Assembly: GCF_044324785.1 (NCBI RefSeq)
Contig: NZ_CP172127.1
Length of the DNA: 64,000 nt
Reading direction: 5' to 3' (one strand)
Source: Escherichia coli
Lineage (GTDB): Bacteria > Pseudomonadota > Gammaproteobacteria > Enterobacterales > Enterobacteriaceae
The position numbers and the translations under genes were made by a program. Positions 35,713-36,359 of this stretch are shown piece by piece (positions within the stretch are counted from its first letter, which is position 1; every line of letters begins with the position of its first letter). The notes under the pieces were generated by a model that worked only from the letters and a program-made list of their open reading frames with translations, was not told the origin of the DNA and searched no databases.

Positions 35713-35901
35713 TCAGATAATTTCCGGTGATGTTTCCAGCGCATCCGCAATCAGTTTTTCGCCGCGCGGCCTGGAGCGGGTCAGCGCATTTGCCAGCGTG
35801 GAAGACGCCAGCCCGGCCCTGCGGGAAACCTCAGCCAGCGATGTTCCCTTTTTTCTCAGGCCCGCGATAATATCGGCGGGGTGCCAGTCGGGTTGCATCA
35901 T
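35713..35901 (-). CDS. Ner/Nlp-like HTH DNA-binding protein
   Basis: 62 aa ..WHPADIIAGLRKKGTSLAEVSRRAGLASSTLANALTRSRPRGEKLIADALETSPEII resembles Mu Ner / E. coli Nlp (SfsB). Confidence 0.65.
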   Translation of the reverse strand: MMQPDWHPADIIAGLRKKGTSLAEVSRRAGLASSTLANALTRSRPRGEKLIADALETSPEII

Positions 35902-36359
35902 GCTGGCCTCCCGTCGATAACCTGTATGCCGTCAGCAGTACATATCCAGCGTGGGGCGTTCAGATTGGCGGCAAAATACCAGACCAGTTCGCACAGCAGC
36001 CCGGTCAGCGTGGTTTCGGTTTCCGGCAGCAGCACGTGGCCGTTCAGTATCTGCGTCAGCGCCAGGCAGTAATCGCAGAGTGATCCTGCATCAGGCTCAA
36101 AACCGGGTGAAACATCGGGAAGATCATTCGTAATAAACCCGTCAATCAGATGTGGTGGGATCGGCTCGTTCAGCGTGGGCCGCAACAGTGCAAGACAGGT
36201 ATTAAGCCTGCCACAGAGCGCCGTTTTCAGCGCCGGATCGCAGCACTCGATGAGCGTTGTGGCAACGCGATCGCAGTACTCCGCCAGATCGGTGAAATCG
36301 GTAGCGGCACTAAAGGGAACAGCAAGTAAATTGCATTCAGAGGTGAGAGTAGTCGCCAT
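35898..36359 (-). CDS. Hypothetical Cys-rich protein (153 aa); stop overlaps the Ner-like start
   Basis: ORF with 9 Cys and no family I recognise; 4-nt overlap with the downstream Ner-like gene suggests co-translation. Confidence 0.4.
   Translation of the reverse strand: MATTLTSECNLLAVPFSAATDFTDLAEYCDRVATTLIECCDPALKTALCGRLNTCLALLRPTLNEPIPPHLIDGFITNDLPDVSPGFEPDAGSLCDYCLALTQILNGHVLLPETETTLTGLLCELVWYFAANLNAPRWICTADGIQVIDGRPA

Follow-up and report, generated by a model that had tools for sequence, protein, structure and literature searches.

In phages P4 and P1, a small RNA is cut from the transcript that it controls, its 5' end being made by RNase P; it accumulates and pairs with target sites that flank it on new transcripts. 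The P1 elements lie in the order a1 b1, c4, a2 b2, icd, ant, where Icd has 73 amino acids (aa) and Ant is an antirepressor; pairing blocks the translation of icd and stops the coupled ant via Rho-dependent termination, while in P4 it leads to premature termination of the replication operon. In Gifsy-1 of Salmonella, an isrK-type leader RNA governs how a first open reading frame (ORF) is translated, and a regulator gene further downstream is coupled to that ORF (PMC4825925). The locus described here lies in a 64,000-nucleotide (nt) stretch of Escherichia coli DNA (contig NZ_CP172127.1 of assembly GCF_044324785.1), called the window below, to which all positions refer unless P4 is named. It contains two small genes upstream of an rhs gene: orf153 (35898-36359) and the Ner-like gene ner (35713-35901), both on the minus strand and placed here exactly as an earlier note on this DNA had placed them. 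Sequence comparison indicates that the pair probably opens an early operon which belongs to the backbone of a family of enterobacterial integrative islands and is gated by an antisense RNA of the P4/P1 type.

The C4-type RNA and its targets

The interval shared by orf153 and rhs is 521 nt long, and since rhs starts at 36881 on the plus strand the pair is divergent from it, as had been claimed. The AT-rich region said to separate them is there only in part: 220 nt of the interval (36661-36880) have 31.8% GC, whereas the first 300 nt (36360-36660) have 54% GC and contain a C4 antisense RNA and an isrK/a1b1-like leader.

The C4/CI-type antisense RNA gene lies at 36413-36501 on the minus strand and matches the Rfam C4 family (RF01695) over its full length (1-87) with 62.2 bits, against a gathering threshold of 45. 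Its specificity loop reads GUCAGUGAGG, its single-stranded linker AGGCUAA, and its 3' end lies 53 nt before the start of orf153. A scan of one genome per species gave 74 related loci in more than 30 genera of Enterobacterales, and other routes brought the total to 87; of these 87 loci with an orf153 match, 71 have, on the strand of orf153, a C4-type RNA that ends 53-62 nt ahead of the start of the gene. When 42 related sequences are compared over the C4 fold and the b2 hairpin described below, 98.7% of cells are paired and 19 of the 31 pairs show compensatory changes, values that none of 500 shuffles reached.

Upstream of the C4 gene is an isrK/seqA-like leader (36523-36598, minus strand) with the targets b1 (TTAGCCT, 36560-36554) and a1 (CCTCACTGAC, 36544-36535); the isrK/a1b1-like element passes the gathering threshold in three related loci (L002, L003, L004) and in P4. 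The spacer between C4 and orf153 (36360-36412, minus strand) holds a second pair, b2 (TTAGCCT, 36408-36402), presented by the loop of a short hairpin, and a2 (CTCACTG, 36377-36371), which lies 11 nt ahead of the start codon. All four sites match the RNA, with a complementarity of 10 + 7 nt upstream and 7 + 7 nt downstream. Among 63 distinct loci there are 55 in which a2 is followed by, or overlaps, the GGAGG Shine-Dalgarno sequence of orf153, as in CGTTACAGGAGGCTGCCACTATG.

A P_LE-like promoter is predicted at 36592-36620 on the minus strand, with a -35 box TTGCTG (36620-36615), a 17-nt spacer and a -10 box TATTGT (36597-36592). The pattern CTTGCyG-N17-TATyKT is conserved in an alignment of 20 loci and P4, where it aligns with a CTTGCC...TATAGT stretch just upstream of the P4 isrK/seqA-like element; the P4 record carries no promoter annotation, and it is on our own reading that this stretch is taken to be P_LE. 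Similarity among the loci starts exactly at the -35 box, which marks the boundary of the conserved backbone. The promoter/leader region also holds a palindrome, CCTGCAAAATCAGG. In the P4 genome an isrK match (8615-8692) and a C4 match (8420-8507) follow each other in the same isrK-then-C4 order; isrK corresponds to seqA and C4 to the CI RNA (PMC3632133, PMC4825925), and the two matches are taken to be the seqA and CI RNA of the P4 immunity region.

Loop and linker co-vary with all four targets. Across the 63 distinct loci the C4 genes vary mainly in the loop of the second hairpin, with 28 alleles, and in the linker after that hairpin, with 9; 38 combinations of the two occur. Targets were scored as matching where a reverse complement of at least 7 nt stood at the fixed place. 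The linker matches the downstream spacer in 100% of cognate but 0.1% of non-cognate comparisons and the upstream leader in 98% against 0.8%; for the loop the corresponding values are 92% against 11% downstream and 97% against 5% upstream. Duplex energy is -33.4 kcal/mol for cognate and -23.8 kcal/mol for non-cognate combinations.

The coding sequences that NCBI calls 'ash family protein' beside orf153 homologues overlie the C4 gene. For the window ORF over that gene, Pfam Phage_ASH was considered and set aside, the match being weak (E=0.067). If the locus is an antisense switch, this would explain the recurrent 'ash family protein' and 'hypothetical protein' annotations.

orf153 and ner

The orf153 product is acidic (isoelectric point 4.1), with four long helices and a C-terminal beta hairpin; the structure prediction that the earlier note had proposed gave a confident AlphaFold model, a four-helix bundle with a predicted local distance difference test (pLDDT) score of 86. 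It has 10 cysteines, one more than had been counted, and since C29 alone among them is nearly invariant, cysteine richness is not a trait of the family. The earlier note had made the gene depend on conservation of its frame in related islands, and the frame is indeed kept: its length is 142-156 aa in about 60 loci, at identities down to about 50%. A protein search gave 196 clusters at E<=0.001, mostly of about 145-156 aa and down to about 58% identity, and the 120 clusters among the matches listed are all from Enterobacterales; 166 relatives occur among 1.84 billion cluster representatives, the full-length ones down to about 30% identity. The ratio of nonsynonymous to synonymous substitution rates (dN/dS) is 0.17-0.28 overall, pointing to purifying selection; for the window copy it is 0.20-0.26 against copies 76-90% identical and 0.26 against its 90%-identical relative. 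Because its length is conserved, its relatives span many clusters, its dN/dS is low and its predicted fold is confident, orf153 is judged to be a real gene and more than a chance ORF.

No family had been recognised for this protein, and none emerged from wider searches: there is no match in Pfam, NCBIfam, PHROGs, PADLOC (a library oriented to defence and toxin-antitoxin systems) or the PDB sequences, and a single-sequence and profile search of 5.8 billion proteins, together with the 1.84 billion representatives, returned only 'hypothetical' or mis-extended 'ash family' proteins of Enterobacterales. Homology to P4 ORF151 or to the P4 'cI' ORF was rejected, the orf153 profile giving a probability below 1% in hhalign. 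The single match in phages is an unannotated 1.5-kb record; the plasmid matches inspected sit among chromosome-like or prophage genes, and several of the matching records are chromosome-sized. For more distant homologues, the gene context yielded either nothing or contigs of insufficient length. A true P4-like satellite does carry a 37%-identical homologue within its early operon, ahead of epsilon and alpha; the gene order there is int, AlpA, a capsid-like gene, two small ORFs, the homologue, a 159-aa ORF, epsilon and alpha primase. Some database 'fusion' proteins (P0228, P0232) read from an orf153 homologue through an Ash-like translation into a further ORF, which suggests that some loci may have a second C4-type RNA 3' of orf153, and so tandem immunity units.

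The two genes are joined by an ATGA overlap, as had been noted; the junction reads ...GCATGATGCAA, so that the TGA stop of orf153 overlaps the ATG of ner. A Ner-like gene lies 3' of orf153 in 48 loci, and in 40 of these the overlap is kept, with a GAGG-like motif in front, which fits the translational coupling proposed earlier. The Ner/Nlp-like nature of the 62-aa product was likewise borne out by a match to the Pfam family HTH_35 (PF13693; E=1.6e-23, model positions 1-58 of 75). The Ner proteins of relatives normally have 68-89 aa and a WPSRY motif; in the window a TGG-to-TGA change in the codon for the W of that motif (35713-35715) has truncated the gene, so the complete HTH_35 domain with its C-terminal WPSRY segment is absent from this copy. 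The remnant of the frame past the nonsense codon runs to about 35650 and reads PSRYIDDRGN. In the test for SfsB/Nlp orthologues (NCBIfam NF007670) the product scores 90.3 bits, under the cutoff of 150.

A toxin-antitoxin-like module was one of the readings first offered for the pair: orf153 would be the toxin and the Ner-like protein the antitoxin or autorepressor of a type II addiction module that stabilises the island. Two small genes that overlap by 4 nt, the second encoding a DNA-binding helix-turn-helix (HTH) protein, have the look of such a module, the island carries defence and toxin cargo, and a HigA-like gene stands beside ner in some relatives. But more than 20 distinct loci have an intact orf153 and no ner gene at all, only 5 codons of ner are left in the thrW island of E. 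coli ZH193, and in the window it is ner that carries a nonsense codon while orf153 is intact; the orf153 product, moreover, is an acidic helical bundle for which PADLOC, Pfam and the PDB sequences gave no match. The fixed position of orf153 behind C4 and its targets is explained by an antisense-gated operon and not by toxin-antitoxin logic. With orf153 standing alone so often and belonging to no PADLOC or Pfam family, a toxin-antitoxin pair is very unlikely.

Island backbone, proposed operon and state of the window copy

In about 35 loci, orf153 and ner are followed on the same strand by an Integrase_1/Phage_int_SAM_2-type gene and then by a convergent P4-type int at a tRNA gene. The full minus-strand layout is promoter, leader with b1 and a1, C4, b2 and a2, orf153, ner, a variable stretch, a two-hairpin block, an EFASI RNA and the Integrase_1-type gene; the minimal backbone, seen in Dickeya, consists of int, ner, orf153 and C4, and its surroundings lack an AlpA/Vis-type gene. 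The module is present in 1483 of 5426 complete E. coli genomes, or about a quarter.

What lies past the promoter is another matter. In the window it is rhs, in related islands it is tssF, tssG and vgrG or an autotransporter or fimbriae, and other related islands have type I restriction-modification genes with DarTG, the same with AbiE, TacAT with AbiE, or NACHT and radical-SAM genes. Since the cargo beyond the -35 box differs from locus to locus, the module belongs to the island backbone and not to rhs. This bears on the remaining suggestion of the earlier note, a regulatory module for the island or for rhs. Its first half is plausible, and the gene-neighbourhood comparison shows the orf153/ner module to be conserved; the same comparison gives no support for a specific link to rhs. 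A dedicated regulator of rhs, with Ner binding the AT-rich region upstream of that gene, would suit two divergent units with a shared interval of which 220 nt are AT-rich, and the closer backbone relatives do carry type VI secretion or rhs-type cargo. The same module nevertheless borders unrelated cargo in Dickeya, Klebsiella, Salmonella and others, conservation ends at the -35 box, so that there is no shared operator in the cargo-side DNA, and Ner is truncated here, yet 67 records of complete E. coli genomes contain the island at an identity of at least 99%. Given the varying cargo and the end of conservation at the promoter, a dedicated role of this pair in the regulation of rhs is very unlikely.

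The antisense-gated operon, in contrast to these two readings, would work as follows. Pairing of the RNA with b2 and a2 would hide the ribosome-binding site of orf153; ner, whose translation would rely on the ATGA overlap, would then go untranslated as well, and the untranslated RNA would be terminated, through polarity, before it reached EFASI and the second recombinase gene. The operon would thus be silent in a resident island and would be switched on only where the RNA has been displaced or is scarce, as when the island enters a naive cell; the numerous alleles of loop and linker would resemble immunity groups. The Ner-like protein would be a Cro/Ner-type regulator, either repressing the early promoter by feedback or serving the integrase as its directionality factor. 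The orf153 protein may act by binding another protein, as an antirepressor, an establishment factor or an anti-defence factor; an early, protein-binding role is suggested by the homologue in the early operon of the P4-like satellite and by the antirepressors among the genes at the equivalent position in P1, P4 and Gifsy-1.

A narrower version would make Ner the directionality factor of the P4-type integrase, with orf153 as an accessory and C4 keeping excision off. It has in its favour that ner is the only small DNA-binding gene of the minimal Dickeya backbone and that the operon runs toward int and the EFASI-preceded second recombinase gene. However, orf153 persists where ner and int are absent, and we know of no Ner-family protein that serves as a directionality factor: Ner of phage Mu is a transcriptional repressor, and the Ner-like proteins of IncA/C plasmids are said to be repressors too. 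Excision control in this form is compatible with the data but appears unlikely.

Several observations weigh against the antisense-gated operon itself. In the window the scores for isrK (RF01394, 43.7 bits against a gathering threshold of 50) and c4-a1b1 (RF03163, 43.8 bits against 46.7) fall below threshold, and a generic promoter scan gave no sigma-70 site, the predicted promoter deriving only from the P4 alignment and matching the consensus weakly. The loci were gathered via orf153, which makes the C4 association conditional on its presence, and orf153 lies without a detectable C4 RNA in about 16 of the 87, including the P4-like satellite (L007-L009); kinship of the loci partly inflates the cognate and non-cognate statistics. 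Fold searches with orf153 returned only generic four-helix bundles and uncharacterised relatives, and the roles suggested for orf153 and Ner, which are drawn from position and analogy, are the weakest part of the proposal. A different mechanism could also be read from the spacer, where at 36383-36427 (minus strand) a GGTGG-type copy of the C4 5' arm (GGTGGTGG) pairs with the C4 3' arm (CCACCACC). This helix, inside which the b2 hairpin lies, cannot coexist with the mature C4 fold. It co-varies across loci, one pair being G-C in 20 sequences but A-U in 17, and it could act as a switch for processing or for termination.

Taken further, the unit of C4 and orf153 might be an undescribed immunity and establishment device of a large family of non-satellite enterobacterial islands with defence, type VI secretion and adhesin cargo, in which loop and linker would define dozens of exclusive immunity groups and orf153 would be a new early effector released where the RNA is absent; this extension is speculative, and we regard it as rather unlikely. 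In many genomes C4 and orf153 are the last island genes left beside host genes or an integrase stub, with ner and both recombinases gone (L002, the ZH193 thrW island, L017 and L048); they are either the last to decay by chance or retained for a function of their own. Were they such a device, their persistence without integrases would reflect selection, for example for keeping out newly arriving related islands, P4-like satellites or P1-like phages that share the specificity.

The island in the window is about 10 kb long and lies in the E. coli chromosome beside the third (31352-31427) of four identical tRNA-Asn genes, the others being at 27119-27194, 29528-29603 and 57228-57303; a search that tolerated up to 3 mismatches found no repeat of the tRNA 3' end to mark the other border of the island. 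The annotation of strain N3, which is 99.9% identical, runs from a frameshifted P4-type integrase through a frameshifted 'phage integrase N-terminal domain' gene, an HTH gene and a hypothetical gene to an RHS core protein and a tetratricopeptide repeat (TPR) immunity gene, followed by chromosomal yeeN. Next to the tRNA gene, the gene for the P4-type tyrosine integrase (31590-32850, plus strand) is frameshifted in the window as well. The Integrase_1/Phage_int_SAM_2-type recombinase remnant (34388-34795, minus strand) is an N-terminal part, matching residues 1-169 of a 294-aa Klebsiella protein by tblastn, with a frameshift and, relative to L003, an internal deletion.

This copy is thus degraded, and its outputs are predicted to be largely dead: orf153 has no Shine-Dalgarno sequence, ner is cut short by its nonsense codon and neither recombinase gene is intact. 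The earlier note had also counted on a ribosome-binding site to support the orf153 frame, and here the support fails for this copy, whose allele (CTCACTGTAGACGGCCTTATG) is the only one among 63 distinct loci to lack the signal, the GGAGG after a2 being replaced by GTAGACGG. The leader terminator hairpin of most relatives and of P4 has been deleted in the window lineage, and the C4 closing stem has one C-A mismatch. That the locus is now an inert relic, its ORFs persisting through incomplete decay, is accordingly a reading to be taken seriously, even if it falls somewhat short of probable. It has to be set against the full 153-aa frame that has been kept, the low dN/dS against the 90%-identical relative, and the C4 RNA and its four targets, which despite the decay are still mutually complementary; and it describes the state of this copy, not the nature of the module. 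For the window itself, the gated operon then means a mostly decayed copy with no bearing on the regulation of rhs.

The cargo genes lie outside the switch. They encode a PAAR-Rhs toxin (36881-41062, plus strand), with a PAAR-like N-terminus, and a TPR/Sel1-like protein (41065-41667, plus strand, 32% GC) that is presumed to confer immunity. Backbone copies that are 87-91% identical (L092, L093) sit at a tRNA-Asn gene next to mtfA and have tssG, tssF and vgrG in the cargo position, and for this reason the window island may be a reduced type VI secretion island.

Between ner and the second recombinase remnant lie two further RNA elements. The EFASI RNA (RF02957, 34851-34978, minus strand) scores 100.8 bits against a gathering threshold of 51.2 and is also present in L003; it ends 55 nt before the start of the Integrase_1-type remnant, the same spacing as between C4 and orf153. 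EFASI has been described as usually lying downstream of STAXI, and no STAXI RNA was found near it at E<=1. The other element is an unnamed conserved block of two hairpins (35077-35240, minus strand), placed between ner and EFASI. About 140 nt of it were aligned from 21 loci, and the ner-EFASI region was found at least partly by blastn in 36; RNAalifold gives two hairpins, one of them GCGTCACTTT...AAAGTGACGC, with compensatory changes at 5 pairs, and there is no Rfam match at E<=1. The block overlaps a 52-aa 'hypothetical protein' on the plus strand (WP_000301065), possibly a spurious call. Between int and the second recombinase remnant are two direct repeats of 131 nt (33052-33182 and 33280-33410), 73% identical, the first of which contains a 42-nt imperfect palindrome. 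Related sequence occurs in three E. coli/Escherichia loci (L003, L014, L044), and the arrangement is reminiscent of the crr region of P4 with its two repeats of 120 bp.

Comparison with described systems

The RNA families found here and the regulatory principle are already known from P4 and P1. No description was found of the fixed coupling of the RNA to orf153 and ner, of a backbone role next to int in non-satellite islands of diverse cargo, or of the breadth of co-varying alleles; papers on EARL islands and on Klebsiella Asn-tDNA islands do not describe the module, and no paper citing the protein accessions was found. The islands at whose edge the module stands supply E. coli and many other Enterobacterales with defence systems, type VI secretion genes and toxins, and the -35 box of the module's promoter gives a precise sequence marker for one island boundary. 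Read as an antisense switch, the module suggests how such islands keep their recombination and establishment genes silent, and its 38 natural RNA-target specificities form a set for testing rules of antisense recognition and the incompatibility of islands.

The EARL (ROD21-like) islands share with the present island the integration at Asn tRNA genes and a P4-like integrase; their defining features are a directionality factor at the opposite end, genes for a type IV pilus and MobA/TraD genes, and the section of PMC6035254 on their conserved genes lists neither C4 RNA nor orf153 nor ner. None of the defining EARL genes is seen in the window island of about 10 kb. The Ner-like protein has its DNA-binding domain, HTH_35, in common with Ner of phage Mu and with Nlp/SfsB of E. 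coli; it differs in falling below the SfsB equivalog cutoff, in the lack of the WPSRY segment from this copy and in its place in an island operon behind orf153.

With the immunity region of P4 the locus shares the aligned promoter, the succession of an isrK/seqA-like leader, a C4/CI RNA and a downstream target, and a P4-type integrase at a tRNA gene. Searches by tblastn with the proteins of P4 and of L007 found no alpha primase/helicase, epsilon, sid, delta or psu gene in the window between 30001 and 45000 or within 8 kb in the 74 related loci; of what a P4-like satellite should have, the window shows the integrase at its tRNA-Asn gene. The downstream genes are orf153 and ner here, whereas in P4 they are epsilon, orf151, cnr and alpha; the operon points to int, and the target abuts the Shine-Dalgarno sequence, as it does in P1. 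P1 and P7 immI (a1 b1, c4, a2 b2, icd, ant) further resemble the locus in that a pair of targets stands on either side of the RNA, the ribosome-binding site of the first ORF is where the downstream target lies, and the first and second genes overlap. The proteins look unrelated, as judged by size and family annotation only, and the element here is an integrative island and not a plasmid prophage. With isrK, orf45 and anrP of Gifsy-1 the locus shares an isrK-type leader before a first ORF to which a regulator gene further on is coupled (PMC4825925); there, IsrK is a trans-acting activator of translation and the products are an antirepressor and an antiterminator, while the leader here has no terminator and is separated from the ORF by a C4 RNA. 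In this series orf153 occupies the position held by icd and ant in P1, by epsilon in P4, and by orf45 and anrP in Gifsy-1.

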